Of a stretch of 64,000 bases of DNA, positions 1-54,222 are shown one piece after another; within the stretch, counting starts at the first letter, position 1, and each line of letters begins with the position of its first letter. Made by a program: the position numbers and the translations under genes. The notes beneath the pieces are model-generated. The model worked only from the letters and a program-made list of their open reading frames with translations. It made no database searches and was not told the origin of the DNA. Source of the DNA: a bacterium. Lineage in GTDB: Bacteria > Sysuimicrobiota > Sysuimicrobiia > Sysuimicrobiales > Segetimicrobiaceae. Location of the stretch: assembly GCA_035622635.1 (NCBI GenBank), contig DASPUZ010000163.1:4813-68812 (forward strand), written 5' to 3'.

Positions 1-395
1 CAGGTCCGCGTGAAGTGACTGCACCCAATCAGCGAATCGCTCGACCTGTTCCTTCGTAGGTTTGTGCTGCGGCTTCGCGTTGTGCTTGCGGCCCATGTGA
101 TCGGTGCGAGCGGATTCGTCTTGAGGAGCCCCATCATCAGCAGCCACCGGATAAACGTCCGCAGGGCCCTGTACGCTTGGTGCACGGTCGACGGCTTCAT
201 GCCCCGTGCGGGGAGCTTCGCGAGGTACGTTGTGATCCCGAGCGTATCGAGGTCGGCGACGGTCGACATGTCGGCGGCAATCCGGTCGAGCCACCACCGA
301 TACGTCCCCATCGTCCGTGCCGAACACCCGCCGACCTGCTTTTGGAGCAAGAACGCGTCGACCAGTTGCGGAGTCGTGCGAGGTACTGACGGCAT
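1..395 (-). CDS. Tyrosine recombinase / phage-type integrase, N-terminal part (gene runs off left edge; possible frameshift near nt ~100-110)
   Basis: Reverse translation from ATG 395..393 gives MPSVPRTTPQLVDAFLLQKQVGGCSARTMGTYRWWLDRIAADMSTVADLDTLGITTYLAKLPARGMKPSTVHQAYRALRTFIRWLLMMGLLKTNPLA. This fits the SAM-like N-terminal domain pattern of XerC/XerD-type integrases. It is absent from the ORF track because there is no stop inside the window. It lies 187 nt from the 3' end of tRNA-Pro. Confidence 0.6.
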   Translation of the reverse strand, partial: MPSVPRTTPQLVDAFLLQKQVGGCSARTMGTYRWWLDRIAADMSTVADLDTLGITTYLAKLPARGMKPSTVHQAYRALRTFIRWLLMMGLLKTNPLAPITWAASTTRSRSTNLRRNRSSDSLIGCSHFTRT

Positions 396-581
396 GTCAC
401 CCCGGCGTCTCCCGTGACGCCCTGTCGGACCCATGCGGGGGAACGATTCGGGGCAATGTCGGCGAGTCCGCGAACGGGACCGCCACTCTCACCACCCGCG
501 AAACCGAGAGTCGGACCTTTTAACTTTTCGCCCTGTTTTGCACCCCCTTCATCGTGCGCTAGGCCGTACTGTGTAACGGTT

Positions 582-658
582 TGGTCGGGGCGCCCGGACT
601 TGAACCGGGGACCTTCTGCTCCCAAAGCAGACGCGCTACCAAGCTGCGCTACGCCCCG
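582..658 (-). tRNA. tRNA-Pro (anticodon TGG), CCA encoded
   Basis: Reverse complement reads CGGGGCG-TA-GCGC-AGCTTGGTA-GCGC-G-TCTGC-TTTGGGA-GCAGA-AGGTC-CCCGG-TTCAAGT-CCGGG-CGCCCCG-A-CCA. This is a perfect cloverleaf with a 7-bp acceptor stem, GG in the D-loop, a TTCAAGT T-loop, anticodon loop T-T-TGG-G-A, and G37 as is typical of tRNA-Pro. Confidence 0.93.
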
Positions 659-992
659 TCGTTTCTGGGTCTGCGGAGGTGTGCGTCTGCTCATCCGCGC
701 CACCCCCCCAGATTCGCTCTAGGCTGGAGTGTAGCACAAATGATGACGCAAAGTGACGCGAGTGACATACCCCTCCCTTGCGAGTAATGCGGCAGACTCT
801 CGGCACGAGACGCTGACCATGGCGCTGCACTACGCGCGCCTCGCCCACGTGGACGTCGCGGCGCCTACCGGCGGGCGAGCCCCGTGGACGTCCTCACGCT
901 GGAGTAGGTCCTGCCAGCGTGACTACGCGCAAGGCCAGGCGGGCATAGGGGTCCTCAGACGGCCTCGGGAAAGGAGCGTTGACGTCGGCGCC

Positions 993-1442: not shown

Positions 1443-2205
1443 TTACGGCCGCCCTCCGGCCATGACGCTATGAAGGCTCGTAGGGAATGCGAATGATGAG
1501 TACTTGCAACCGCTCTTCCACGAGTTGCGGGAGGCATCGGCAGACGCGTCAACTGGGAAGCAGTCCACCCGTGCGAAAAGTGCGTCGCGCACGGCAACGA
1601 CATCAACGAGCGGGAAATCGGGCTGAGTGTGCGGGTCATACTGCGCGTGGGGCGCGGCCTCGCTCATCCAGAGCAACACTCGTACGCCCGGCTTCCGGTG
1701 GCGCCTCGAGTATGCGCCGAACGTGTGGACAATGGCGTTGCGCGCAGCCCACCACTCACTGCGGCTCAACTCTCCCACTACGCCCAGCCGGTGCAGGTCA
1801 GAGTTTCGGCCAGACCGCGCACGGTACTGTCACCGGCCGGGTGCAGTTCGCAAGCCAGCCGATTCAACGCGGCCTCCGCCTCCGCGTACGTCGGGCGCTC
1901 GTACGCCCACTGCAACTCCGCCGCCACGCCCCCTGCTGGCCGGTCGAAAGATAGGGCGTGACCTCCTCCGCGTAATGTCTGGTGTTGTCGCCGAGCACTC
2001 CATTCACCATGCCAGGGACGCTTCCCCCATTTCTCAATGAACTCCCGCGGAGACTCGTGCGCGGCGCCCCGCGTGTCCGATGCACGTCCGCGAGAACGCA
2101 AGAGGAGGATTCCGGAAGAATTCGCCGGTACTGGCCATCGAACACACGAAGGTGATTGACAGCACTTTCAACCCCACCCATAATGCCCCCAACAACCGAA
2201 TAGTC
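1443..2205 (-). pseudogene. Decayed Mutator/IS256-like transposase remnant (C-terminal half, several frameshifts)
   Basis: Three minus-strand frames read successively ..SVVGGIMGGVESAVNHLRVFDGQ.., ..DVHRTRGAPRTSLR.., and ..AELQWAYERPTYAEAEAALNRLACELHPAGDSTVRGLAETLTCTGWA(stop, -1 shift)VVGELSRSEWWAARNAIVHTFGAYSRRHRK. This order matches the motif order I recall for Mutator-type transposases (DG..L..Av..vF / H..RN / A.t..eAe.aL..l / P.aa.sL.eGleEtLT / tTNaIEs). No intact ORF spans it. Confidence 0.4.
2156..2184 (+). promoter_or_regulatory. Sigma70-type promoter candidate for the riboswitch-led operon
   Basis: TTGACA (2156-2161), exactly 17 nt of spacer, then CATAAT (2179-2184). The predicted transcription start at ~2191-2193 lies ~10 nt upstream of the conserved leader AGTCAGCA. 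Confidence 0.5.
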
Positions 2206-2286
2206 AGCACCGCCTTCGAACGGGCAAACCCGAAGCAATTCGGGGACGCAAAGCCACGGGACCCTCAGGGTCGGCCGGGTTGCCGA
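2202..2286 (+). promoter_or_regulatory. c-di-GMP-I (GEMM-I) riboswitch aptamer, copy 1
   Basis: Reads ..CGGGCAAACC-CGAA-GCAA-TTCG-GGGACGCAAAGCC-ACGGGACCC-TCA-GGGTCGGCCGGGTTGCCG. This aligns block for block with the Vibrio Vc2 aptamer as I recall it (GGGCAAACC, hairpin with GNRA tetraloop, GGGACGCAAAGCC, second hairpin, GGGUUnCCG). P1b stem CCCGAA/TTCGGG is capped by GCAA (2235-2238). Confidence 0.85.
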
Positions 2287-2309
2287 AAAGGAGCCGGGTG
2301 TACGTTGCC

Positions 2310-2350
2310 GGGCACGGAGGCCGTTCTGTGGCATCTGTGCCCTTGTTTTA
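2310..2350 (+). terminator. Terminator-like hairpin in the expression platform of riboswitch 1
   Basis: GGGCACGGA (2310-2318) pairs with TCTGTGCCC (2334-2342), giving 9 bp with one G-U. The loop is 15 nt and the stem is followed by TTGTTTTAT. Confidence 0.5.
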
Positions 2351-2456
2351 TCCTCTGCGGCGTCCGCGCGTTGGCTCGCACCGCTCGTCCGATAGCACTG
2401 CCTGCGCACGACACTACGGGAACGTGCTCCAAAAAAACGAATTGGGGAGGCAACCC

Positions 2457-2708
2457 ATGAGCAGTCGGGTCAATCATCAGGAGATCGTCAAGAAGGCGCT
2501 CGATGCCAAGGCGGTGGATTTTGCGGCGATCGGGAAGGTGATCGCCGAGGTGGGGCCGGCGCTCGCGCTCGCCGATGACCCCGGGGACTTCTTCTGCGGT
2601 ACCATGCGGCATTTCGTGCACGTCTATTCCGTCCGTGTCGTCAACGACGGCAGTGCGGTGGAAGAGTTGGGGGCTCTCGGGCGGGTTGCCGCGGAATTGC
2701 GGTCATAG
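2457..2708 (+). CDS. Hypothetical small protein (83 aa), first gene behind riboswitch 1
   Basis: ATG at 2457 is preceded by GGGGAGG 6 nt upstream. Translation is MSSRVNHQEIVKKALDAKAVDFAAIGKVIAEVGPALALADDPGDFFCGTMRHFVHVYSVRVVNDGSAVEELGALGRVAAELRS. The TAG stop (2706-2708) is immediately followed by the GTG of the next gene. Confidence 0.6.
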   Translation: MSSRVNHQEIVKKALDAKAVDFAAIGKVIAEVGPALALADDPGDFFCGTMRHFVHVYSVRVVNDGSAVEELGALGRVAAELRS

Positions 2709-4031
2709 GTGGCGGCCATTCACGAGGACGCCGAGGCGAGCGCCGGTGCTTCCGATGTCAACGGAGCCCGGTGGGACTCCGAGGACTTGGTGCGCCGTCT
2801 CTGCTGGGCGCTTGATATTGCCGAGCGGGCGGTGGACCGGCTCGCCGCAGCCGGATATGCCGATCCGGATGAAGTTGGAAACCATCTTCGTCCCGAGAAG
2901 CTGATCGCCGAGACCGCGTTTCTGTTGCTCAGTGCTTCGACGGCCGGGCGGTATCCCGAGGTGGAGCGGCGTGTTCGGCGCGTGGCGGAGCGGTTGACCC
3001 CTCACGCCCGAAGCGAGCGCATGATTCTCGGGATCTGCCTGGAGCCGGCCCTGGCCCTCGATTACGCGGAGGCGCACATCTGCCTGGCGAGGCTCGGGTA
3101 CCCCGACGTACGCTTCGACGCCGCACTCCGCCGTAGCCTCGGCGCACAGGCGCACGCCAGCCGCGAACGCCCTCCCCACCGTGTTCTCGAGCAGGATTGG
3201 CTCATGAGCGGCTGGACCGGCGCGCGAGCCTGCCGCGCGGCGCGCAGCTCGCAGGCGGTGTGGAACTCGGCACTGGGCCGCTCGATCGATCTGCTCGGCT
3301 GCACCCGTGAGGACGTGTACGCCTTTACTCACGCTCTAATGTACGTGGCCGACCAGGACCTCCATCCCCGGCGGTTGCCGCGCCCGAAGCCGGTGATCCT
3401 TGAAGAGGCCGAAGCCGCTCTCGCTTGGTGCCTCGACGAGCAGGATTACGATCTGGGCGGGGAGGTTCTGCTTGCATGGCCGCTCGTCCGGAGGCCGTGG
3501 AGCGCGGGGGCAGCGTTCGCGTTTCGAGTGCTGGCGCACGTCGAGGACCAGGCCGGCTTTCTCCCCGCACCGAGTACCCGCCTGCAGCGCCTCAACGCGC
3601 TGCGGGGTGATGCGCGCATCAACTACCTTTTGGCAACGGCGTATCACACGGCATACGTGATGGGGATGCTGTGCGCTGCGGTCCTGCGATTCGGAAGAAC
3701 ACCCCCATCCAAGATCCCTCGGACCCTGGCGGCGCGGGGCAGCGCACACAGAATCCTCCCGCTCCTCGACGCAGACGGAATGCACCCTCACTGGCGCGGC
3801 GAGTTTGACCACCTCCGTGGTCCGGAGCAGGACGCGATTGCGGGCTTCCTGCTGGCCATCGCACTGCGCCGGAAGGTGGGCCGGCGAGACATTGCCGGTC
3901 TCCACGACGTCCTGGCCATGGGACTCAGCCTGGGCCTGGCGGATTCCCCTGCGGCAAGCCAGGCCGCGGAACTGTTGGAACGCCTCGCCGGGGCGGCTCC
4001 GGAGTTACCGGTGGCCGCAGGGCGGAGCTAG
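2709..4031 (+). CDS. Hypothetical protein (440 aa, helix-rich by composition, no TM or signal peptide seen)
   Basis: Long ORF in a coding-like frame, with its GTG start abutting the stop of the 83-aa gene. I cannot assign any family motif. Confidence 0.7.
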   Translation: MAAIHEDAEASAGASDVNGARWDSEDLVRRLCWALDIAERAVDRLAAAGYADPDEVGNHLRPEKLIAETAFLLLSASTAGRYPEVERRVRRVAERLTPHARSERMILGICLEPALALDYAEAHICLARLGYPDVRFDAALRRSLGAQAHASRERPPHRVLEQDWLMSGWTGARACRAARSSQAVWNSALGRSIDLLGCTREDVYAFTHALMYVADQDLHPRRLPRPKPVILEEAEAALAWCLDEQDYDLGGEVLLAWPLVRRPWSAGAAFAFRVLAHVEDQAGFLPAPSTRLQRLNALRGDARINYLLATAYHTAYVMGMLCAAVLRFGRTPPSKIPRTLAARGSAHRILPLLDADGMHPHWRGEFDHLRGPEQDAIAGFLLAIALRRKVGRRDIAGLHDVLAMGLSLGLADSPAASQAAELLERLAGAAPELPVAAGRS

Positions 4032-4039
4032 TCCCGAAG

Positions 4040-4122
4040 AGTCAGCATCCTTCGAAGGGGCAAACCCGAAGCGATTCGGGGACGCAAAGCCATGGGACCC
4101 ACGAGGTCAGCCGGGCTGCCGG
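4040..4122 (+). promoter_or_regulatory. c-di-GMP-I (GEMM-I) riboswitch aptamer, copy 2 (intercistronic)
   Basis: Reads AGTCAGCATCCTTCGAAGGGGCAAACC-CGAA-GCGA-TTCG-GGGACGCAAAGCC-ATGGGACCC-ACGA-GGTCAGCCGGGCTGCCGG. It has the same blocks as copy 1. The tetraloop is GCGA (still GNRA). In the second hairpin, C2257:G2273 of copy 1 is replaced by T4093:A4109. It starts 9 nt after the stop of the 440-aa gene. Confidence 0.85.
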
Positions 4123-4147
4123 AGGGCACGAGCACAAAGGGAACACG

Positions 4148-4190
4148 GACGCGAGCAACTGTGACGGTGCGCTCGCGTCTTGCTTTCTTG
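4148..4190 (+). terminator. Intrinsic terminator-like hairpin in the expression platform of riboswitch 2
   Basis: GACGCGAGC (4148-4156) pairs perfectly with GCTCGCGTC (4171-4179) around a 14-nt loop. The stem is followed by TTGCTTTCTTG. Confidence 0.6.
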
Positions 4191-4222
4191 CTGACCCAAT
4201 TCGAATAAAGGGGGAAACTCAC

Positions 4223-6361
4223 GTGACGGACAACAGCGCCCAGAACCCCGTTTCACGGATCGGCAACCCGCCCGCGAAGGTTGACCTCACGAAATTACCG
4301 CCCGAGCGGGCCCGAGCGTCTTTTCGTGCGCTCATTCTCGCCAATCCCAACTACTTCGGAAACGTGACCGGCAGCCAATTCAAACCCGTCTTGAACATCG
4401 TTTCCGACACGACATACGAGGAGCTGCACTGTGTGGGATTCCAGCCCGCGCTGAACCGGCTGGAGGCCGTGGTCCACGTCAACCAGTCGACGGGGTATGG
4501 CGGCGACGTGTGCTCGAGCGGGTCGCGGGAGTACGTTCGCTTCTACCTCTCCTACGACAACGGCGCCACCTGGCAAGACCAGGGGTCGGTGAGCTTCGCG
4601 GTCTACGACGTGCCAGGGAACAAGCCGCTCGAATATGCTGCCACACTGGAACTCCAGCCCCCGCCGGCGGAGAAGCTGTGCTTCATTCAGAACCTCCCGA
4701 AAGTCAGGGCGATCCTCTCCTGGAACAACGATCCGCCTCCAAACACTCCGGCCTTTACGCCGGTGTGGGGCAACGTAGTGGATGCGCACATCCAGATCGA
4801 AGGGCTCGACCTGATCGTACTGGCCGACGTGCTGCAGGAGGCCAACGTCAGCCTGCCGATCGAGCTCGCCTCGTCGATCGACCTGTCGCAGAGCGTTCAC
4901 ACCGCCAAGGCAAAGGCGCTGAGCGCGGGTGAGTTGGTCGCTCTCTACCAGGGGACCAAGGTGCCATCGCACCGCTTCCTGTTCGCCGAGTTCCAGCAAC
5001 TCCTGGCCCACCCGCCGTTGACCCAGACCTTGATGACGGCAACGCCGTCATTGCCGCTGGCCGGGCTCGGCGTCAATGTCGGGGACGCGGTGGCCGGGCT
5101 GCTTGGCACGAGCGGCGACACCACGTACGAGGAGCTGGACTGCGTCGGGCTCGACTTCAATCGGGACGCGGTGGTGGGCGTGCTGAAGGTCAAGCAGCCC
5201 GGGGGCTATCTTGGCGGCCCGTGCACGGCCGGGAGCCAGGAGTATGTGGCGTTCTGGGTCGACTGGGGGGATGGCAAGGGGTGGACCTATGCGGGGACCG
5301 CGTCGGTCTCCGTTCACGACTTCAGCAGTATTCCGCTGGACGGCCTTGAGTACTCTGTGTATCTCCCCGTTGATATCGTCAGCCACATGCAACCGTGCGG
5401 CAGCGGGGCCAAGACGGCGCGTGTGCGCGCCATCCTTTCCTGGGAGACACCGCCGCCGCCGAGTAATCCAGACTACGTGCCGGTGTGGGGGAACCGGGAC
5501 GACACGTTGGTTCTCGTCCGGCCCGGGACCGCGCCCACCGCGTGCATGGCCAATATCAGCATCATCGGCGGGATCGGCATCGGCCAGATCGACACCGGCA
5601 GCACGGGATACACGGTGCCGAACGCGCTCTTTGCGCTCCAGGGCACCCCTGCCGATCCCTGGGTTCCCGCCCGGCAGTGCCCGTTTGGAGCCCGGATTGT
5701 CATTCAGGGATATCCGTGCGTCGGATACAAGTATCGCGTCAAAGTCAGGGACGTCACGGCCGGCGGGCTCCCGATCATATTGACCGATCAGATTTGGACG
5801 GTGGACAACAACGGCAACGGGACGTGGCGGAGTCCAGACGGGAGTGGGTTCTTCACGTACGTGGGTACGAGCGACAACATCGACAATGTCCTGGCCTACT
5901 GGGATTCCTCCGGCGACGATCTGTGGGAAGTCATGCTGGAGCTCGCGGACGCCAGCGACAACGTGCTCAACTGGACGCCCCAGTACCGAGTCCAGTTGGA
6001 CAACACCGCGCCCATCGCTGCAATCCACATCGATAGCGGCGGTGATTGCAAGCAGTTTACGGCGGGCGCCACGATCAACGGCCACTTCGTGGCGCAGGAC
6101 GCGAACTTCGGCGTGTTCGGGCTGAGCACGCTCCCGGCCTCCGTGAATCCCAATGAACCCACCACCGCCACGCCGGCGACATCGGAAACGGCGCCCTCGC
6201 CGGGTAACCCTTGGCAACTCAACACCGACACTCCCGACGAGATGCCGCCGTGCGGCTATGTCGTACACCTGGATGTGTGGGACCGGTCCATCCTGAACAG
6301 CGCTCCCGGTAACCACAACTACAATTCAGCCGACGTGGGCTTCTGCTTGCTGATCTCCTAG
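4223..6361 (+). CDS. Hypothetical protein (712 aa) with internal duplication of a ~130-aa domain
   Basis: GTG start is preceded by AAAGGGGGAA. Residues ~62-193 and ~299-433 share DTTYEEL.CVG, GY.GG.C..GS.EYV.F, LEY, (A)RVRAILSW..PPP..P...PVWGN. No signal peptide or TM segment; the C-terminal ~270 aa are Gly/Asn/Asp/Thr-rich (beta-like). Confidence 0.8.
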   Translation: MTDNSAQNPVSRIGNPPAKVDLTKLPPERARASFRALILANPNYFGNVTGSQFKPVLNIVSDTTYEELHCVGFQPALNRLEAVVHVNQSTGYGGDVCSSGSREYVRFYLSYDNGATWQDQGSVSFAVYDVPGNKPLEYAATLELQPPPAEKLCFIQNLPKVRAILSWNNDPPPNTPAFTPVWGNVVDAHIQIEGLDLIVLADVLQEANVSLPIELASSIDLSQSVHTAKAKALSAGELVALYQGTKVPSHRFLFAEFQQLLAHPPLTQTLMTATPSLPLAGLGVNVGDAVAGLLGTSGDTTYEELDCVGLDFNRDAVVGVLKVKQPGGYLGGPCTAGSQEYVAFWVDWGDGKGWTYAGTASVSVHDFSSIPLDGLEYSVYLPVDIVSHMQPCGSGAKTARVRAILSWETPPPPSNPDYVPVWGNRDDTLVLVRPGTAPTACMANISIIGGIGIGQIDTGSTGYTVPNALFALQGTPADPWVPARQCPFGARIVIQGYPCVGYKYRVKVRDVTAGGLPIILTDQIWTVDNNGNGTWRSPDGSGFFTYVGTSDNIDNVLAYWDSSGDDLWEVMLELADASDNVLNWTPQYRVQLDNTAPIAAIHIDSGGDCKQFTAGATINGHFVAQDANFGVFGLSTLPASVNPNEPTTATPATSETAPSPGNPWQLNTDTPDEMPPCGYVVHLDVWDRSILNSAPGNHNYNSADVGFCLLIS

Positions 6362-6382
6362 TCATAGGCGGGTGCGTTTCCC

Positions 6383-6415
6383 GAGGAGGGCTCTCCCGTT
6401 GGGCGAGCCCTCCTC
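6383..6415 (+). terminator. Strong hairpin just after the 712-aa gene (terminator candidate, no U-tract)
   Basis: GAGGAGGGCTC (6383-6393) pairs perfectly with GAGCCCTCCTC (6405-6415), giving an 11-bp stem with an 11-nt loop. It begins 22 nt after the stop codon. Confidence 0.45.
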
Positions 6416-6536
6416 CACAAAGGAGCGCTCTTTCGCGGAGCGACAGCCCAACTGGAACCCATTGCAGGGCAACAATTTCCGCACGACGGCCTCTTGAAGG
6501 CCGCCAGAAAGAGGCCCCCCTCGCTCCCGCGGATCA

Positions 6537-6730
6537 GTGACAGGGTCGTGGCGCTCCTCACGCACCTGCAGGTCAGCGGTGCGAGATCGCGCACCCTGGA
6601 ACACCGTCGCATGGGCTCGGCGCGCTCACCAGCGTCCTCGACAACGCCGATCCCGACGCGCTGACACGTCCGAATCTCGTTGCATTCTTGGAGACGTTTC
6701 AGCTCAGCCGGCCTGCGGCCGCTGGAGGGT
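6537..6730 (+). pseudogene. Possible integrase N-terminal remnant (frameshifted)
   Basis: Two adjoining frames give ..ALLTHLQVSGARSRTLEHRRMG / LGALTSVLDNADPDALTRPNLVAFLETFQLSRPAAAG. This parallels the spacing of FLLQKQVGGCSARTMGTYRWWLDRIA....DLDTLGITTYLAKL in the integrase at 1-395. It is short, and no catalytic domain follows. Confidence 0.3.
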
Positions 6731-7091
6731 TCGCGTTCAGCTTCCACTCATCAAAGGACCGGCCCGGAAGACCGCGGTTGGCTGTCGTCAGGTCGAGCGG
6801 TCACGAACTCTTTTGCCCGCCACACCCCCCTTTCGCTCCCGCCCATCGCGCACGACAGTGTGGGAGTTGTTAGTGTCTGTACACCGCGGATTTTGGTCCT
6901 ACCACAAGATATAAAGCACATGTCGAAAGGAGGTGCTATGCGGTGCCCGCGCGTCTGTTGACCCGCAGGAACTGGCTCGCCGTGTCCGGGTGGCACTTGG
7001 AAGACGAGCCGGCAGACAGCGGTGCGGCGGGCGATCGCCTCTCTGCTGACCGGCCGGGACGGCGACGGGCTACAGACGATCGAGTGGAAGA

Positions 7092-30096: not shown

Positions 30097-32106
30097 TCAA
30101 CGTTGCTCGACCGTATACCGGTGCACCCAGTCGGCGACGCGCTGGACGATGTCGATCCTGTGGCTCGGGCGGCCGTTCCCCCGGAATGTGTGGCTCTCCC
30201 CAGGGTACCGCACCAGCTCAACCGGCACCCGGCCCGCCGCCACGAGTCCTGTGAAAAACTCCTCGCCCTGTCCGATCGGGCAGCGATCATCCGCCTCGCC
30301 ATGCACGATCAGCGTCGGGGTGGTGACGCTCTCCACGTAGTTGATGGGCGACAGGCGCCGGTATGCCTCCCGTTGCCGTGTGAGATCCCCCCCCACCTCC
30401 CACGCACCGAACCACAGCCCGACGTCGGAGGTCCCGTAGAACGATTCGAAGTTCACGACGGGGGCGCCGACGACCGCGGCCTTGAACCGGTCGGTGTGCG
30501 TGATCGTCCAGGCCGTCATGAAGCCGCCGTAGGAATACCCGCTCACCGCGAGCCGCGCCGGATCCGCCAAGCCCGATGCGACGAGCGCGTCCACCGCGGC
30601 CAGTTGTTCCGGAAGATCGTATTCGCCCCACCGGCCCCGGATGCCGTGCGCGAACGCCTTGTCATAGGAACCCGAACCGGTCGGGTTCAGCTCGAGCACC
30701 GCCCAGTTGCGTGCGGCCAGGACGAACACGTGGAACGACCCGGTGGGAAACCCGTTGCCGTGATAGCTGTGCGGCCCGCCGTGGATCTCGACGAGGAGCG
30801 GGACCGGCCCCCTACCGCTTTCAACGGGGTGGACGACCCACCCGTCGAGTTCGACGCCCTGGGGACTGACGAATACGCGGCGCTCCACCCGGGGCAGGAT
30901 CCCCGGGGAGAGCCAATCCTCGTTCACGCGAGTCAGCCGGTGTTCATTGGTCCCGTCCTCACGGCACGCATACACGTCGCTGGGAACATGCCACTCGGTG
31001 GCGCAGAACGCGATCCGCCCCGCCGCCAACGAGAACCCCTGTACCTGGCGCCCGCCGCCGACGACGGATCGTACGGCTCCGTCAGGCACGGACACCCGCG
31101 CCAGGTGCACGTCCCCCGTGTCGGCGATCGGCACGACCACGGACCCGCCGTCCGCTGACCACGCCGGCGGCGGCGTCGCCTCCGGTGGGCGAGCCAGCGC
31201 GACGGAGCGGTGATAGCCTGCGGTGATCGCCCGGGCCGGTCCGCCATCCGCGGGTACCACCCAGACGCGCACCATCGCGTCCCCTAACCCGGGCTCCTGC
31301 TCGTCGTGACCGTAGAAGGCGATGAGCCGGCCATCGGGGGACCAGGACGGCACGGCGACCCGCCCGACGGCGTCCGTGAGGCGCCGCGCGTTCCCGCCGT
31401 CGACGTCCATCACCCACAGATCGAACAGGCTGTAGTCTGTCACGCCGGTGCGTGCACGGGCGAAGGCGAGCCGGCGCCCGTCGGGTGACCACGCGGGGGA
31501 AACGTGCTCCGCGTCACCGGCGGTGCGCTGCGAGGTCTCACCGCCGTCGATCGTTGCGACGAACACATGGGCGACCGTGTCGAACGTGTACCCCACCCCG
31601 TCCGTCTTGTATTGGGCCCGCGTCACAACGCGAGGCCGCTGTGCACGTCGGTCGTGGGCCCCGTCCTCGGCCGGCGCCGGATCCTTCGCGACGCGCGCCG
31701 AGAACGCAAGCTGGGAGCCGTCGGGCGACCAGATCGCCGGTCCTGCCCCGCCTGCCAGCGAGGTCAGCCGGTGGGGCTCACCGCCGGCAATCGGGAGCAG
31801 ATAGAGTTGCGCCGCCTGTCCGCCGCGGTCAGAGAGGAAGGCCATCCAGCGCCCGTCGGGCGACCATCGCGGCGCCCAGTCGCGGCCGGGACCTCTCGTG
31901 ACCCGGCGGTGACTGTCGCTGTCCGTCACCGTCCAGATCGCGGAGCGATAGCCGTCGTCCGCCAGATCCATCTCGGTGCGGGTGTACGCGACGAGCCGGC
32001 CGTCCGGCGAGAGCTGAGCGTCGGACGCGATCACAACCTTTGCCAGATCACGGGGCTGGATGACATGCGGTGGATCGGGCACAGGGTTCCTCCTTCCGTT
32101 TCTCAC
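30097..32106 (-). CDS. S9 family serine peptidase (beta-propeller plus prolyl-oligopeptidase/acylaminoacyl-peptidase domain)
   Basis: Repeated SPDG..(L/I)AF propeller motifs. Nucleophile context [10 protein letters not shown], then HG..D..CP. GTG overlaps the glgB stop (GTGA). Confidence 0.85.
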
Positions 32107-34427
32107 CCTCGCCGGACGCCCACGATGGACCGCTCGCCTACGGCGCCGAGTGCCGCGAGCCGCCGATCGAGGTCGCGGATCCCGCGGCGGTGGCGCAGTT
32201 CTTCACCGACGGATTCCAACACGTACCGTAGGACGGCAGGCGCCATTGAACTGTGACGCTCCTGCTCGAGTGTCCAGATGAGCGCCGCCAACCGCCGGAC
32301 CGCGTCACGCGGGCCGAGCCGGGGCCTCGTCTGGACCGCCGCGACACCGGGTTCGTGGAGTGTCACAAGAGCCTGCGCGCCCTCGGAGCGGGCGCGCGGG
32401 GTCACCTGCGGCACGCCTTCGGGCGTGCGCTGGGAGGCGTCCGCACTGCCGTTCGCCCGCCATCCCTCTCCTAGCTGCCACGACGCCTCGGACGCCGCAT
32501 CGTCCCACGGGATGACGGCATCGCTCAGGAGAAAGATCGCACCGAGCGGAGGCAGCGTGAGCACCACCGAATACGGGTGACCGTGAGCCGGGACCGACTC
32601 GCCAAAGATGCCTTCGTTTGTGACCCCGCTGCCTCCGTACTCGCGCGCGTCGCTGTTCAGCACCTCACGCCACACCCCCCCGCGGGGCACGCCGACACGA
32701 TATCCGGGACGAGGGACAGGCGTGAAGTTGAGCACGCCGACCACCAGGCGACCGGGCGAGCGCCCACGACGGATCAGGCTGACCACGCTCTGGTCCCGAT
32801 CGCCGCAGTCGATCCACGCGAACCCTCGAGGATCGCAGTCCCACTCGTGCAACGCCGGTTCCGCACGGTACCACCCGTTGAGCGCCCGCACCCACCGCTG
32901 GATCCCGAGGTGGGGAGGGTGATCCAGCAGGTGCCAGTCGAGGCTCTCGTCGTGGTGCCACTCCCGCCACTGCCCGAACTCTCCGCCCATGAATAGGAGC
33001 TTCTTGCCGGACTGCAGGTACATATAGCCCAACAGCAGGCGCAGGTTGGCAAACTTCTGCCAGTCGTCCCCGGGCATCTTTGCGAGCAACGACCCTTTGC
33101 CGTGGACCACCTCGTCGTGCGACAACGGAAGCACGAAGTTCTCGGTAAAGGCGTAGAGGCCCCGAAACGTGAGCGTGTCGTGATGATACCTGCGGTGCAC
33201 CGGGTCGTGCGCCATGTACTGCAGGGTGTCGTGCATCCACCCCATGTCCCACTTGAGCCCAAAACCCAATCCCCCGGTGTCCGTGGGACGGGAGACCTGA
33301 GACCACGCCGTAGACTCTTCCGCGATCGTGTATGCCGAGGGATAGTGCCGATAGACCTCTTCGTTGAGGCGGCGCAGAAACGCGAGCGCCTCGAGGTTCT
33401 CGCGCCCGCCCTGTTCGTTCGGGATCCACTCTCCCTCACGCCGCGAGTAGTCCAGGTACAGCATCGACGCCACCGCGTCCAGGCGCAGCCCGTCTGCGTG
33501 GTACTTGTCGAGCCAGAACAACGCGTTGCTCAATAGGAAGCTCCGCACTTCGTGCCGCCCGTAGTTGAAGATGCTACTGTGCCAATCGGGATGCAGGCCG
33601 CGCCTGGGATCGGCGTGCTCGTACACGTGCGTGCCGTCGAAATACACCAGCCCGTGCTCGTCTGTCGGAAAGTGCGACGGGACCCAGTCCAGGATGACGG
33701 CGATACCGTGCCGGTGGAAGGTGTCCACCAGGTACATGAAGTCCTGCGGGGCGCCGTATCGGCTCGTGGGAGCGAAGTACCCGGTGGTCTGGTATCCCCA
33801 GGACCCGTAGAAGGGATGCTCCATCACCGGCATCAACTCGACGTGGGTAAAGCCCAGGTCCCGGACATATCTGGGCAGGCGGGCAGCGAGCTCCCGGTAC
33901 GTCAGGGCGCGGTGGCCCTCCGACGGGACCCGCATCCATGAGCCGAGGTGAACCTCGAAGATGGCCGCGGGCGACACGAGGATGTTCCGGCGGCCTCGCG
34001 ACGCAAGCCACGCCGCGTCGCTCCACGCATAGCCGAGGTCCCATACGACGGACGCGGTGCCCGGCGGCCGCTCGGCGCGCAGGGCAAAGGGATCGGCTTT
34101 GTCCACCCGGTAGCCGCCGCCTTTGGCGACGATGTGATACTTGTACAGACTCCCCGGGGGTACGCCCGGGACAAAGCGCTCCCAGATTCCCGATGTCTCC
34201 CGCACCCGCATCGGGTGGACATCCCGGTCCCACCCGTTGAAGTCTCCGACGACGGACACCTGCTCGGCGTTGGGCGCCCAGACGGCAAAGTACGCGCCCG
34301 GCACACCGCCGACGGTCATCAAATGCGCGCCGAGCTTCTCGTAGAGGCGGACGTGGCTGCCCTCGTTGAACAGGTACAGATCCTCCGCGGTCAACATCGT
34401 CACGTCCTGCGTTCCGGTCGTCTTCAT
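32103..34427 (-). CDS. glgB: 1,4-alpha-glucan branching enzyme with ~138-aa C-terminal extension
   Basis: Reads YEKLGAH...[74 protein letters not shown], and [14 protein letters not shown]. Confidence 0.9.
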
Positions 34428-34505
34428 GGCCGCCGCAGCCTCCCGGGCGTCTGACCCTCGTGTGACCTGCCGGCGCGGGTGTGCTGTCCGTGCCGCGTCA
34501 CGGGC

Positions 34506-37040
34506 CTACCGTTGCCACAAGATAAGCCCGGCTTCCGCCGGGATGCGCACATCGCGGTGGAATGGCACGATCCGAGGCGTGTAGTCCGAAGCAGACCGGG
34601 ACGCCGGGAGATGCGCACGGTAATGGTAACTGTTGCCCTCTCCCGGCAGCCGCTCCTGCCGCTCCATCGCCACGCACTCGGCGGGCCCCGCGCTGTCCAG
34701 CGGCGGGGCGTAGAGCTCGACGTTGATCCACCCCGGCTCGAGCGCGCCCAACGATACCGCGATATCGAAGCGCCACCCGTCGCCCTCCTGGCGCACATCC
34801 AGCGGCCCGAACTTCATCTCCGACCAGTGCTCGGCAAGACCGTTCCACCACTTGCGCAGCTCCTTCGAGAGCCTGGCCCCTTCAGCGCACCGGCACCTGA
34901 CGGCCTCCATCGCCGGCAGGTAGAACCGATCCAGATACTGCCGGATCATCCGGTTCCCGCTGAACTGGGGCGCGAGGCGCGCCATGCTGGTCCGCATCCG
35001 CGCGATCCAGGCACGCGGCAGTCCGGCGCCGTCCCGTGCATAGAACTTCGGGACGACGTCTTCCTCGAGGAGCGTGTAGAGCTGGACCGCCTCTTGGGCG
35101 TCACGCGCGGCGTCGGTGCAGTTGCCGGGGCCGCCCAGCGCCCATCCCACGTCCGGCGCATACCCCTCGTCCCACCACCCATCGAGCGCCGACAGGTTCA
35201 GGCCGCCGTTCACGAGCACCTTCATCCCGCTGGTCCCGCAGGCCTCCCAAGGGCGCCGGGGCGTATTGAGCCAGAGGTCCACGCCCTGCACGAGTTCCTG
35301 CGCGAGCGCCATGTCGTAGTCCTCCAGGAAGATCGCGTGCTCCCGCACCGCGGGATCAGCGGCAAACTCCGTCCACATGCGCACGATCTCCTTACCCGGC
35401 GCATCCGCCGGGTGAGCCTTGCCCGCGACGATGATCTGCACCGGGTGCGCCGGATCCAAAAGCAGCCGGACCAGCCGGTTGCGGTCGCGCAGCAAGAGTG
35501 CCGGCCGCTTGTACTCGGTCATGCGCCGCGCAAACCCGATCGTCAGCGCCTTCGGATCGAGCACGCGGCGTGCCCGTATCACGGCGTCCGGAGTCGCGCC
35601 CTGGTGCGCGAGTTGCCGCGCCAGGCGTTCGCGAGCGTAGCGGATCAGCTCCTCGCATTTCGAGTTTCGGAACCTCCACAGCGTCTCATCGGCAATCCGC
35701 TCGATTGCCTCCATGACCGGGGGCACGTCGCCCCGCCACCGCTCCTTGCCACACGCTTCGGACCACAGCGCGTCCGCCGGAACGGAGTCCCACGACGACG
35801 TGTGCACGCCGTTGGTGACGTACCCGATGGGAATCTCATGCTCGGGCCAGCGCGGATACAGCGGCTGGAAGATCCTCCGGCTCACCATCCCGTGCAGCCG
35901 GCTGACGCCGTTGGCGCCCCCGCACCCGCGCATGGCTAGGTACGCCATGCTGAACGGTTCCTGTTCATCGTGCGCGTCCCTGCGGCCGAGGGCCAGCAGT
36001 TCCCGGGAGGAGAGACCGCCCGATCCGGTCAGACCCGGGAGTTGTGAGAAGTGCTGCGCGACGAGGTCCGGAGGGAAGACATCGAATCCCGCGGCAATGG
36101 GCGTGTGCGTCGTGAAGAGGTTGCCAGCCCTGGTCGCCCACCACGCGTCCCAAAACGACACGCCGGAATCCGCCATGAACCGTCTCGCCCGTTCGACGAC
36201 GACGAACGCCGCGTGGCCCTCGTTGAGGTGGCAGACCGTCACCGGCACTTCGAGCGCCTCGAGCGCCCGCCAGCCCGCGATCCCCAGGACGAACTCCTGC
36301 AGAAACCGCTGCTCGACACCGCCACCGTACAGGGTGCTCGTGATGCCACGGTCCGGGGCGCTGTTCCACGGATCGTTCGTGTCGAGCAGATACAACATCA
36401 CCCGACCGACGACGGCGGACCACACACGGACCCAGAGCGTGCGTCCCGGCAGCGCCAGCGGGACACGCAGCCATGCCCCTTGGGCCGTGCGGGCGGGCTG
36501 GATCGGAAGACTGCCCGGATCGCTGTAGGGGTAACTCTCCTGCTGATGTCCCTCCGCGTCCAGAACCTGTCGAAAATACCCCTCGTAGTACAGCAGCCCG
36601 ACGGCGACGACCGGAACGCCGAGATCGCTCGCGGTCTTCAGGTAGTCTCCGGCGAGCACCCCGAGGCCGCCCGCATAGAGCGGCAGGGCATCGCTCAACC
36701 CGAACTCCATGCTATAGTACGCGATCGTTCCGACCGAGGAACCGGGATAGGTCCGCGCGCACCAACCGGGATTGTCGAGATACCGGGTGCGCTCGTCGAC
36801 CAGGCGCCGCAGGGTCGCGACGAACTCACGGTCCCCGGCGAGCCGTTCGAGCGTGGCGCGTGGTACCTCCTGCAGGACCAGCCATGGATTGTGAAACCGC
36901 GCCCACGCCTCCGCGCTGAGGGAGCGCCATAGCTCGTCCCCCGCACGGTTCCAGGTCCACCGCAAATCCAGCGCTAACTCGTGAAGCTCCTCAAGTTCCT
37001 GTGGAAGGTCAGTGCGCGATACGGCACGCAACGAGTTCAT
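34506..37040 (-). CDS. glgP: Alpha-glucan phosphorylase (GT35, maltodextrin/glycogen phosphorylase type with DUF3417-like N-terminus)
   Basis: Internal Met 37040 with RBS GGAGG. Reads LALDLRWTW, AYYSMEFGL...LPLYAGGLGVLAGD, NEGHAAF, and GTSGMKVLVNGGLNLSALDGWW. Confidence 0.88.
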   Translation of the reverse strand: MNSLRAVSRTDLPQELEELHELALDLRWTWNRAGDELWRSLSAEAWARFHNPWLVLQEVPRATLERLAGDREFVATLRRLVDERTRYLDNPGWCARTYPGSSVGTIAYYSMEFGLSDALPLYAGGLGVLAGDYLKTASDLGVPVVAVGLLYYEGYFRQVLDAEGHQQESYPYSDPGSLPIQPARTAQGAWLRVPLALPGRTLWVRVWSAVVGRVMLYLLDTNDPWNSAPDRGITSTLYGGGVEQRFLQEFVLGIAGWRALEALEVPVTVCHLNEGHAAFVVVERARRFMADSGVSFWDAWWATRAGNLFTTHTPIAAGFDVFPPDLVAQHFSQLPGLTGSGGLSSRELLALGRRDAHDEQEPFSMAYLAMRGCGGANGVSRLHGMVSRRIFQPLYPRWPEHEIPIGYVTNGVHTSSWDSVPADALWSEACGKERWRGDVPPVMEAIERIADETLWRFRNSKCEELIRYARERLARQLAHQGATPDAVIRARRVLDPKALTIGFARRMTEYKRPALLLRDRNRLVRLLLDPAHPVQIIVAGKAHPADAPGKEIVRMWTEFAADPAVREHAIFLEDYDMALAQELVQGVDLWLNTPRRPWEACGTSGMKVLVNGGLNLSALDGWWDEGYAPDVGWALGGPGNCTDAARDAQEAVQLYTLLEEDVVPKFYARDGAGLPRAWIARMRTSMARLAPQFSGNRMIRQYLDRFYLPAMEAVRCRCAEGARLSKELRKWWNGLAEHWSEMKFGPLDVRQEGDGWRFDIAVSLGALEPGWINVELYAPPLDSAGPAECVAMERQERLPGEGNSYHYRAHLPASRSASDYTPRIVPFHRDVRIPAEAGLILWQR

Positions 37041-37351
37041 CAACCTCCGGCTCGGACACGCCGACGCTTCTCGACACACGCATACCAGGGACGCCGCGAG
37101 CGCCCCTGGCGGCACGGTGCGCATCCGAAACATCCCGCGACCGGCCGGGCATCCGCGGACAGGCCCGCCCGCGCACCGGTCGCGACCGTCGCATCCAGGA
37201 CGTCTGAAACGATGGCGTTCTGCGTCCTCGTCGGGCGGGTCTCGCCTCCCGCCGGACGCGGACACCGCCCGCTATCTTCCGCCTCCGTTCCGGTTATTCC
37301 CTCCCGGCGTGATCGAGGGACCTAGCGCGTGACGGCGCCCCGCGCGGTGGG

Positions 37352-51448: not shown

Positions 51449-52465
51449 TCACCGGGGCGCCCCGCCGTCCCCGTAGACGTCCGTGAAGAGCTCATCCGGC
51501 GCCGGGTCGGGGCTCGCTTCCGCAAAGGTCACCGCCTCCTGGACCTTGCGGTCGGCCTCCGACGCGATCGCAGCCACCGCGGCCTCGTCCAGGGCGCCGG
51601 CGTCCCTCAAGCGCCGCTCGATCTGCACGATCGGATCGCGTACCTTCCACTCCTCGATCTCCGACTTCGGACGGTAGGGTTGGAGCAGGTCGGCCGCACC
51701 ATGCGCCGCATACCGGTACGTCAGCGTCTCCACTGCCCACGGGCGGCCGTTCCGGCGGACGTCGTCGACCACCCGGCGGACGACGTCGTAGACCACCTCG
51801 GGATCCATGCCGTCGCACCGCTCGTTCCGGATGTCGTACGCGCCGAAGCGGGATGCGAGCATGGTCACCGCCGACGATCGCGGCACCGAGGTGCCCATGC
51901 CGTACTGGTTGTTCTCGATGATGAACACGACGGGGCAGAGACCGTCGTGTCCCCACAGACCCGCAAGGTTCGCCGCTTCGTGGAATGCTCCGGTGTTCAT
52001 GGCACCATCGCCGAGGAAGCACATACACACGCGGTCCCCGCCGGTCTCGTAGCGCAGGGCGTACGCTGCACCCACCGCGAGCGGGAGGTGGCCGCCGACG
52101 ATCCCGTAGCCGCCGTAGAACCCGTGCGGCACGTCGAACAGGTGCATCGAACCTCCCTTGCCCTTGCACAACCCGGTCGCCTTGCCGTAGAGTTCAGCCA
52201 TTACCGCACCGGCATCCGCTCCGCGAAGGAGGACGTAGGCGTGATCGCGGTACGAGCCAAACAGAATGTCGTCGTCCCGCAGCGCGGCCAAGGCGCCGAC
52301 CGCCACCGCCTCTTGCCCCACGTACAGGTGCAGGTAGCCGCCCACCTTGCCGCGCCGGAAGCTTCGCTCGGCCTGCTCCTCGAAGCGGCGGAGGAACACC
52401 ATCGAACGGTACCACTCCTGCAGGCGCTCCGTCTCTACCCTGCGGTGCTCGACCTTCTTCGCCAT
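51449..52465 (-). CDS. 2-oxoacid dehydrogenase E1 alpha subunit (ThDP-binding)
   Basis: Reads RRFEE......G...G..HLY.GQEAV, GKGGSMH, and the ThDP motif GDGA.N.G.F.E..N.A.......V.F..ENN.Y. Confidence 0.88.
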   Translation of the reverse strand: MAKKVEHRRVETERLQEWYRSMVFLRRFEEQAERSFRRGKVGGYLHLYVGQEAVAVGALAALRDDDILFGSYRDHAYVLLRGADAGAVMAELYGKATGLCKGKGGSMHLFDVPHGFYGGYGIVGGHLPLAVGAAYALRYETGGDRVCMCFLGDGAMNTGAFHEAANLAGLWGHDGLCPVVFIIENNQYGMGTSVPRSSAVTMLASRFGAYDIRNERCDGMDPEVVYDVVRRVVDDVRRNGRPWAVETLTYRYAAHGAADLLQPYRPKSEIEEWKVRDPIVQIERRLRDAGALDEAAVAAIASEADRKVQEAVTFAEASPDPAPDELFTDVYGDGGAPR

Positions 52466-52806
52466 CTCTCGACCGTCACCACCATCGGCATTGGACAGTC
52501 CCGGCTCAATTGCCACACAGGTATTCCCCCGGCAACCGCCGACCCCCTCTCGGCCGCGCATCCGTCCCCGTCGCCGGCTGCTCGGCACCGACAGGACCGC
52601 GTCAGGGTCGGGCAGAAGCACAGGTCGCGGACATCGGCGCGAACCATCCCACGTTCTCTACCATACCGGACCGGACACGGCGCGGGCGCGGCTCGCATCG
52701 TTCGGGGCAAAGATGCGCCGGGCAGAGGGAGCCTGGCGCCGGAGACCGCCATCGCGCACCGGCGCGGAGCCGCGACCATGCCGGACACGGCGTCCGGAGG
52801 GACCGC

Positions 52807-54222
52807 ATGAACGACGGGGCATATCACATCGGCATGGTCGGACTCGGCACCATGGGCCGCAACCTGCTGCTCAACATGGCGGACCGGGGCTACGCCGTCG
52901 CGGGGTACGACAAGAACGCCGCCAGCGTCGGGGCGCTCCTTCAGGAGTCGGGCAGTCGCGCGATCGGGGCGACGTCCCAGCTCGCCGAGTTCGTCCAGAT
53001 GCTGCGCTCCCCGCGAGCGGTGATGATGTTGGTTCCCGCGGGGCCCGTGGTCGACTCGGTGATCGGGGACCTCCTGCCCCATCTCCGGCGGGGCGACCTC
53101 CTCATCGACGGCGGAAACTCGTTCTTCAAGGACACGGATCTCCGCGGGCAGATGCTCGTCGGGCACGGCATCCACTTCATGGGGGTCGGCGTGTCCGGCG
53201 GAGAGCACGGCGCGCGTCACGGTCCGAGCCTGATGCCGGGCGGCCCCCCGGAGGCGTACGAACGAGTCCGCCCCCTATTCGAGGCGGTCGCCGCGAGCGT
53301 CGGGGGCGATCCGTGCGTGGCATACATGGGTCCCGGCTCGGCGGGACATTACGTGAAGATGGTGCACAACGGGATCGAGTACGGCCTGATGCAGCTCATC
53401 GCCGAGGCATACGATCTCATGAAGCGCGGGCTCGGCATGGGGGAGGACGACCTGCACGAGGTGTTCGCCCGCTGGAACACGGGGGAGCTCGCAGGGTACC
53501 TGATCGAGATCACAGCGGACATCTTCCTGAAGGTCGACGACCGCACCGGGAAGCGCCTGGTGAACGTCATTCTGGACGCGGCGAAGCAAAAGGGCACCGG
53601 CATGTGGACGTCGCAGAACGCGATGGATCTGCACGTTCCGCTCCCCACGACCGACATGGCCGTCGCCATGCGCGACCTCAGCAGCCTGGAGGCGGAGCGG
53701 ACCGCCATGAGCCGGCGGCTCGCTGGTCCGGTCCCGACGGTCCACGACGATCGCGGCTCGTTCACGACGACGCTCGGAAGCGCCCTCTACGCTTCGATGC
53801 TGCTCGCCTACGCGCAGGGCATGGCGCTGCTCAGTCGAGCGTCCATCGCTTACGGGTACGGCGTGAGCCTGGAAGCGGTCGCCCGGATCTGGCGCGGCGG
53901 CTGCATCATTCGCTCCGCGTCGCTCGAGAAAATCCGCGCCGCGTATCTCGCGCGCCCCGACCTGGCGACCCTGCTGTTGGACCCCTCGCTCGGCAGCGAG
54001 GTGGCCGACCGATCCGGCGCCCTGCGCGCCATCGTCTCCACGGGCGCCGCGTGCGGCATCCCTGTGCCAGCGTTCGCCGCGTCGCTCGCCTACTTCGACG
54101 GGTACCGCAGCGCGTGGCTGCCGGCCAATCTCATCCAGGCGCAGCGCGACTACTTCGGCGCCCACACCTACGAGCGCATCGACGAGAAGGGCGTCTTCCA
54201 CACGGAGTGGAGCCGTGAGTGA
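52807..54222 (+). CDS. gnd: 6-phosphogluconate dehydrogenase (decarboxylating)
   Basis: Reads [55 protein letters not shown], and [12 protein letters not shown]. Confidence 0.9.

Follow-up and report, generated by a model that had tools for sequence, protein, structure and literature searches.

The locus examined here lies in a window of 64,000 nucleotides (the whole stretch of bacterial DNA that was analysed). It raises the question of whether a second c-di-GMP-I-type aptamer, placed directly behind the stop codon of one gene and ahead of the next, could serve as a checkpoint inside an operon whose 5' leader already carries such an aptamer.

Two intact c-di-GMP-I-type aptamers lie on one strand

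The preliminary description had claimed a second c-di-GMP-I-type aptamer at this position, and the element is present and intact. An Rfam covariance-model scan of the whole window returned three matches: a tRNA on the minus strand (585-658) and two matches to RF03167 (c-di-GMP-I-GGC). With RF03167 as the best model in cmscan, copy 1 scored 61.6 bits (2214-2288, E 4e-12) and copy 2 scored 61.4 bits (4050-4124, E 4.7e-12), against a gathering score of 59. Weaker matches of both copies to models of the same clan (CL00126) also exceeded their own gathering scores and were masked by clan competition. The aptamer appeared where a match to RF01051 had been expected, with RF03167 instead as the best-scoring family. 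The features of the region, all on the plus strand, are as follows.

2156-2184, plus strand: sigma-70-like promoter (TTGACA-17-CATAAT, 11/12), the sole promoter-like site in 1800-6800
2196-2209, plus strand: 5' leader motif, copy 1 (CCGAATAGTCAGCA), identical to 4034-4047 at 13/14 positions and also found in L119, L126, L160 and L168
2212-2291, plus strand: c-di-GMP-I-type aptamer, copy 1 (model match 2214-2288)
2310-2350, plus strand: terminator 1, a two-tier hairpin (2310-2342) plus a U-rich tract (dG -22.9 kcal/mol, z -4.7)
2457-2708, plus strand: 83-aa ORF without a Pfam match, the usual partner upstream of DUF6895
2709-4031, plus strand: 440-aa DUF6895 gene (PF21836, E 2e-46), whose start codon directly follows the stop codon of the 83-aa ORF
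4034-4047, plus strand: leader motif, copy 2 (CCGAAGAGTCAGCA), beginning 3 nt past the DUF6895 stop codon
4048-4126, plus strand: c-di-GMP-I-type aptamer, copy 2 (model match 4050-4124), with a three-helix minimum free energy (MFE) fold
4147-4189, plus strand: terminator 2, a 10-bp two-tier hairpin (4147-4180) plus UUGCUUUCUU (dG -21.3 kcal/mol, z -2.9)
4189-4195, plus strand: UGCUGAC, a perfect 7-nt complement of GUCAGCA (4041-4047), seen in MFE folds and noticed post hoc
4209-6361, plus strand: Shine-Dalgarno (SD) sequence (AGGGGG) and 712-aa gene starting at GTG 4223, whose product is all-beta and internally duplicated

Copy 2 is located in the 191-nt spacer that separates the DUF6895 gene from the 712-aa gene. 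It had been placed at 4040, 9 nt past the stop; the adjacency holds, but the start does not, since the likeness to copy 1 sets in at 4034, 3 nt beyond the TAG (4029-4031), and the aptamer proper at 4048-4050. As a side observation on the leader of copy 1, a long ORF can be read from GTG 2298, just past the aptamer; it was set aside for its non-coding-looking translation, and ATG 2457 has a strong SD sequence and 83-aa homologs.

The two 75-nt aptamers are 86.7% identical, within the range of 85-90% estimated by eye, and each of their 10 mismatches falls in a loop or bulge or is compatible with a wobble pair. In the 60-nt flanks on either side, identity between the copies drops to 40-50%, which is the random level. 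Because 10/10 differences spare the pairing while the flanks have been randomised, both copies are under selection.

The aptamer fold is supported by covariation, except at one claimed pair

Folded alone, 4048-4126 adopts the three-helix shape as its MFE structure, with P1 formed by 4048-4054 and 4120-4126, P2 capped by a GCGA loop, and P3 at 4088-4117. At least 120 related aptamers were gathered from metagenomes, of which 108 instances were parsed and 43 sequences were aligned for covariation analysis. Over the 43 relatives 97.3% of the consensus structure is paired and four pairs show double-sided changes; 0/500 shuffles reached as high a value. Copy 2 has the covariation-supported P1/P2/P3 junction with its GNRA loop on P2. 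The reported change of the tetraloop from GCAA to GCGA between the copies, both of the GNRA type, is correct, and all 43 sequences of the family alignment have a GNRA loop here.

The differences between the copies had been described as structure-preserving and, more specifically, as including a compensatory change from C2257:G2273 to U4093:A4109. The general statement is borne out by the mismatches listed above, but the specific pair is not. In the covariance-model structure 2257/4093 pairs with 2277/4113, so that the change between the copies is from C-G to U-G, and 2273/4109 is an unpaired bulge. The pair of the model is C-G in 40 of the 43 aligned aptamers (U-A 1, U-G 1, other 1) and in 103 of the 108 parsed instances (U-A 2, C-A 2, U-G 1). 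In the latter set the bulge carries A or G regardless of what stands at its alleged partner position. The alleged pair itself can form in 18.6% of the 43 aptamers, no better than in shuffles. The covariation argument built on it fails because the proposed pair is no pair.

The second aptamer lacks the promoter of its siblings

Within 1800-6800, no promoter site of 9/12 or better was found besides 2156-2184, and none lies anywhere in the DUF6895 gene. The 110 nt upstream of copy 2 were searched for a sigma-70-like promoter and none was found; the best site there reaches 6/12, which is background. The earlier remark that copy 2 has no obvious promoter is therefore upheld, against a score of 11/12 in every sibling cassette that carries the leader motif. 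No terminator was found in the sequence between the stop at 4031 and aptamer 2. From the U-tract of terminator 2 to GTG 4223 there are only 34 nt, SD included, into which no promoter fits; the 712-aa gene would therefore be transcribable only through the hairpin.

The sibling cassettes (L119/L159, L126, L160, L168, L092 and L193) resemble the window copies in their leader motif, in an aptamer that is up to ~95% identical, and in a two-tier terminator, and they differ from copy 2 in having a promoter throughout. The 14-nt leader motif has the form CCGAA(T/G)AGTCAGCA; it is common to L119/L159, L126, L160 and L168, with a close, short-J1/2 form in L092 and L193. All six of these distinct loci have an 11/12 sigma-70-type promoter of the form TTGACA-17/18-(C/G)ATAAT at a fixed distance, 26-29 nt upstream of the aptamer. 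Each cassette stands upstream of its associated gene and never downstream of it, and in L126 a full promoter-riboswitch cassette drives a 712-family gene that is 40% identical to the one in the window.

The promoter block is conserved well beyond the hexamers. An upstream CGAACACAC block precedes the promoter at the same distance to the aptamer in window copy 1, L119/L159, L126, L160 and L168, and the whole reads CGAACACAC-N3-GGTGATTGACA-N17/18-CATAAT (2140-2184 in the window). Because the block precedes unrelated genes on different contigs, it points to a common regulator site or UP element moving together with the riboswitch cassette.

Since copy 2 has no promoter of its own, no terminator precedes it, and the 712-aa gene can be reached only through the hairpin, read-through from the upstream promoter is the simplest model. 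We therefore favour, at a probability of roughly 0.6, the reading that copy 2 and terminator 2 form an intra-operon attenuator, a second checkpoint in one operon, in which co-transcription of the 83-aa, DUF6895 and 712-aa genes and ligand-dependent termination at terminator 2 are both parts that we infer.

An alternative that we consider unlikely would make riboswitch 2 the 5' leader of an independent 712-aa unit, transcribed from a weak or alternative-sigma promoter in the 3' end of the DUF6895 gene. The gene modules around the 712-aa and DUF6895 genes were never linked in the other genomes examined, as separate units would have it, and apart from the true tandem L162 the two-aptamer loci found elsewhere are themselves separate units, in which a dedicated terminator (L098, L146, L151 and L181) or a tRNA (L140 and L156) follows the first gene. 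Most of the 122 metagenomic instances of the aptamer family likewise have no recognisable sigma-70 consensus upstream, and because of this a missing consensus match is not proof of a missing promoter. Against this stands the cassette lineage itself, where the promoter is highly conserved and easily recognised yet absent at copy 2, with no site of 9/12 or better in the DUF6895 gene to take its place. Moreover, copy 2 becomes homologous to the sibling leaders only ~5 nt past their predicted start site, and this homology directly adjoins the stop codon; the leader is kept and the promoter is not.

Terminator 2 shows no folding link to aptamer 2

The terminator stem reported at 4148-4156/4171-4179, followed by a U-rich tract, is real, and its stem has 10 bp rather than 9. 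Terminator 1 is conserved in L168 with one change from G-U to G-C. Under constraint folding, no coupling of the P1 state of aptamer 2 to the terminator was found, the terminator forming with a probability of 0.99-1.00 in every state. When the RNA was folded up to the terminator loop, pairing of the left arm of the terminator (T-left) in copy 2 was 0.51 versus 0.50 between the P1 states. Window copy 1 and L168 were the same as copy 2 in showing no P1-terminator coupling in folding. A search of both window copies for an antiterminator (co-transcriptional windows, forced or forbidden P1, and RNAduplex) gave no duplex that beats shuffles.

Translational control was considered as well, with the anti-SD-like 5' strand of P1 pairing to the SD (the SD being its next-best partner); the candidate was rejected, as SD accessibility under constraint folding was 0.49 in every P1 state of aptamer 2.

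The siblings behave differently. In L119, L126, L160 and L092, though not in the window copies, the 3' strand of P1 forms an antiterminator when P1 is open (folded up to the terminator loop), T-left being sequestered at 0.80-0.92 with P1 open versus 0.03-0.68 with P1 closed; the same antiterminator helix was seen by eye in L121 and is absent from these numbers. Judged by these folds, four to five of the siblings resemble OFF switches. By homology with them, the OFF direction, in which c-di-GMP would promote termination, is weakly favoured for copy 2.

A further reading, to which we give little credence, takes hairpin 4147-4180 as mainly a constitutive, leaky terminator of the 83-aa/DUF6895 mRNA, with aptamer 2 either acting in the 3' UTR, for instance by protecting the mRNA 3' end in a ligand-dependent manner as in the Vc2 element of Vibrio cholerae, or decoupled from any expression platform. 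The absence of communication in folding from aptamer 2 to either the terminator or the SD accords with this, as does the position of DUF6895 in its three closest loci (L207-L209), where it is the last gene of its unit and is followed by convergent genes. So does the predicted pairing of 4035-4046 with 4190-4203 in the read-through RNA, which would close aptamer and terminator into one self-contained domain. The negative folding result is weak evidence, however, because copy 1, which is clearly a 5' leader, equally lacks in-silico coupling. Aptamer 2 is also no less preserved than copy 1, although its neutral flanks are randomised, the 712-aa gene has no other route of transcription, and every sibling cassette stands upstream of its gene; all three points speak against a role confined to the 3' UTR.

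On the RNA of the spacer we add that GUCAGCA/UGCUGAC together with CGAA/UUCG (4035-4038/4200-4203) bracket the aptamer and terminator region and could form only in read-through RNA; the bracketing complement is not conserved in the sibling cassettes.

Both copies carry the pocket of canonical c-di-GMP-I aptamers

The cmscan alignment places G, A and C at model positions 10, 37 and 75 in both copies. We take these positions to be G20, A47 and C92 of Vc2, in the ligand-contacting pocket, and the change that defines the 'GGC' variant to be A47G, read together with the printed consensus of RF03167. That consensus has G at model position 37 (...GACGCGAAgCc), where both copies have A (...GACGCAAAGCC), so that neither copy carries the variant-defining G. 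RF03167 was the best family for 13/13 further related aptamers tested, though these had been chosen for A at the variant position. The higher score of RF03167 thus reflects the architecture of the lineage (a short P3 and a 6-bp P2), not a variant pocket, because relatives selected for A also match it best. The window copies share the compact P2/P3 architecture of the GGC variant as well as its best score; the variant G is what they do not have.

Both copies are read as ordinary c-di-GMP-I because of this A, and they appear from their sequences to be canonical c-di-GMP-I (GEMM-I) aptamers of one soil-bacterial sub-lineage, predicted to bind c-di-GMP. That they belong instead to the RF03167 'GGC' class, sensing a ligand other than c-di-GMP or c-di-GMP with altered specificity, is very improbable. 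RF03167 is indeed the top Rfam match of the two copies as well as of the 13 relatives. Position 37, however, is A in both copies where the consensus has G, and the metagenomic relatives match RF03167 best despite having been selected for A. A caveat to this counter-evidence is the equivalent of A18 of Vc2, where copy 1 has C and copy 2 has G instead of A.

Sensors of c-di-GMP and of c-AMP-GMP are told apart by the ligand-contacting position 20, which is G in the former and A in the latter (PMC9481103); both copies have G at model position 10, not the A of GEMM-Ib (c-AMP-GMP) aptamers. RF03167 outscores the parent family throughout the soil lineage with the parental A (2214-2288 and 4050-4124 in the window, and L098, L126, L140, L146, L151 and L156). 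Automatic 'GGC variant' labels are accordingly unreliable or misleading for RF03167 matches in this lineage.

The arrangement differs from published tandem riboswitches

With c-di-GMP-I riboswitches in general (GEMM-I, RF01051/CL00126; V. cholerae Vc2 and C. difficile Cd1), copy 2 shares three helices, a GNRA loop on P2, the GGCAAACC...GGGACGCAAAGCC core, the G/A/C pocket nucleotides and a downstream intrinsic terminator. It differs from the class in standing directly after a stop codon inside an apparent operon, in a J1/2 one nucleotide shorter than in most relatives, in the C or G at the A18 equivalent, and in having no recognisable switching helix from aptamer to terminator.

The preliminary description had called serial or intercistronic use of GEMM-I much less documented than single leader copies. 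This is overstated: 347 doublets and 12 triplets have been published for c-di-GMP-I, the commonest tandem class, including a triplet in B. thuringiensis, and in Desulfobacca acetoxidans seven riboswitches in 7 kb (c-di-GMP-I, AdoCbl and c-AMP-GMP) form clusters separated by ORFs (PMC9481103). The window locus resembles the published tandems (PMC9481103) in that a single ligand has two complete riboswitches, both equipped with a terminator, which would here act in series on one downstream gene. It differs from them in that its units are 1.8 kb apart; they are not contiguous, and the 83-aa and 440-aa ORFs (2457-4031) intervene. In D. acetoxidans, highly similar c-di-GMP-I aptamers likewise recur along one gene cluster with ORFs between them; there, however, c-di-GMP-I is paired with AdoCbl and the series is read as independent logic devices, whereas the window holds a single class, and its second copy is without the siblings' promoter. 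The element itself is ordinary; its placement, as a promoter-less copy abutting a stop codon, is unusual.

Other serial arrangements were seen among the loci collected. L098 (1441-2800), L146, L151 and L181 each hold two paralogous small secreted-protein genes in a row, each gene with a c-di-GMP-I aptamer beside its SD and with a terminator between the paired genes; this two-unit design is recurrent and belongs to another high-GC lineage. L162 (minus strand, oriented 1100-1335) carries true tandem c-di-GMP-I aptamers ~145 nt apart, in the second of which GCAAAACC replaces GCAAAGCC; it mixes transcriptional and translational platforms, because its first aptamer has a terminator and its second abuts the SD.

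Predicted consequences of the proposed intra-operon attenuator

If copy 2 acts as an intra-operon attenuator, 2156-6361 would form one plus-strand unit consisting of promoter, riboswitch 1, the 83-aa gene, the DUF6895 gene, riboswitch 2 (4048-4126 plus 4147-4189) and the 712-aa gene. A polymerase that had passed riboswitch 1 and two genes would, 17 nt beyond the DUF6895 stop, meet a promoter-less aptamer that senses c-di-GMP and, because of this distance, a terminating ribosome would not cover P1. The polymerase would then meet intrinsic terminator 2, and read-through would be needed for expression of the 712-aa gene. Because two genes lie between the riboswitches, the proximal genes would see one c-di-GMP checkpoint and the distal gene two, a 'split tandem' in which a steeper or shifted dose-response of the distal gene would be expected. 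Whether the one mRNA indeed yields a graded proximal output and a distal output that is steeper, or band-limited in c-di-GMP if the two polarities are opposite, is a tentative proposal that we hold at somewhat below even odds. A sharper response is expected of tandem riboswitches, and in this locus the tandem would be divided by genes; should both aptamers act on the same mRNA, the locus would offer a compact natural example of an operon whose cistrons differ in their sensitivity to one second messenger.

The two-aptamer arrangement is confined to one lineage

The arrangement is identical in three further assemblies (strain variants L082, L205 and L206), which are ~99.7% identical to the window and offer no informative substitutions in the riboswitch. 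It was seen only in these near-identical strains and is thus specific to one species-level lineage. Among 81 loci of the 712-aa family (80 genome loci plus L081), none has a GEMM-I core, and none of the five loci of the closest DUF6895 homologs gave a match to a c-di-GMP riboswitch. The small upstream ORF is kept in 5/5 of these DUF6895 loci (L083, L084 and L207-L209), with lengths of 83-117 aa. Other structured RNAs were noticed nearby: four tandem Acido-Lenti-1 RNAs at L005 11132-11452, near one 712-family locus, and an int-alpA RNA at L083 12588-12653, near a DUF6895 locus.

Putatively regulated proteins and genomic surroundings

The locus would link c-di-GMP to two large uncharacterised families, DUF6895 and the 712-aa all-beta family, the latter with thousands of members, archaeal ones included. 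The DUF6895 protein has an all-alpha AF2 model (pLDDT 84), and the 712-aa protein an all-beta, multi-domain, internally duplicated one (pLDDT 85). No Pfam domain was found in the 83-aa and 712-aa proteins, the DUF being the only match across the regulated proteins, and no sequence relatives of these proteins were found in the PDB. A Foldseek search with the 712-aa model returned generic Ig-like arrays only (TM 0.16 or less). The 712-aa protein has 2467 homologs. In its family (window 4223-6361; loci L001-L080) the duplication covers residues ~60-190 and ~300-430, and the homologs, in their thousands, are spread over Acidobacteriota, Nitrospirota, cyanobacteria, Chloroflexota and archaea (Nitrososphaerota and Methanosarcinaceae).

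No genes of the c-di-GMP machinery are visible within the window. At its start (1-660; L082 1-5500), a Phage_int_SAM_4 integrase fragment, an HTH_17 excisionase-like gene and numerous small ORFs lie around the tRNA gene (585-658, minus strand). This tRNA-flanking region (window 1-660) probably represents an integrated element; L205 and L206 differ in what it contains. Farther downstream (32106-37265 and 51985-54219), the window encodes GlgB, alpha-glucan phosphorylase and 6-phosphogluconate dehydrogenase; the nearest named relatives of GlgB, at ~70% identity, are scattered among NC10, Chloroflexota, Nitrospirota and Armatimonadota.
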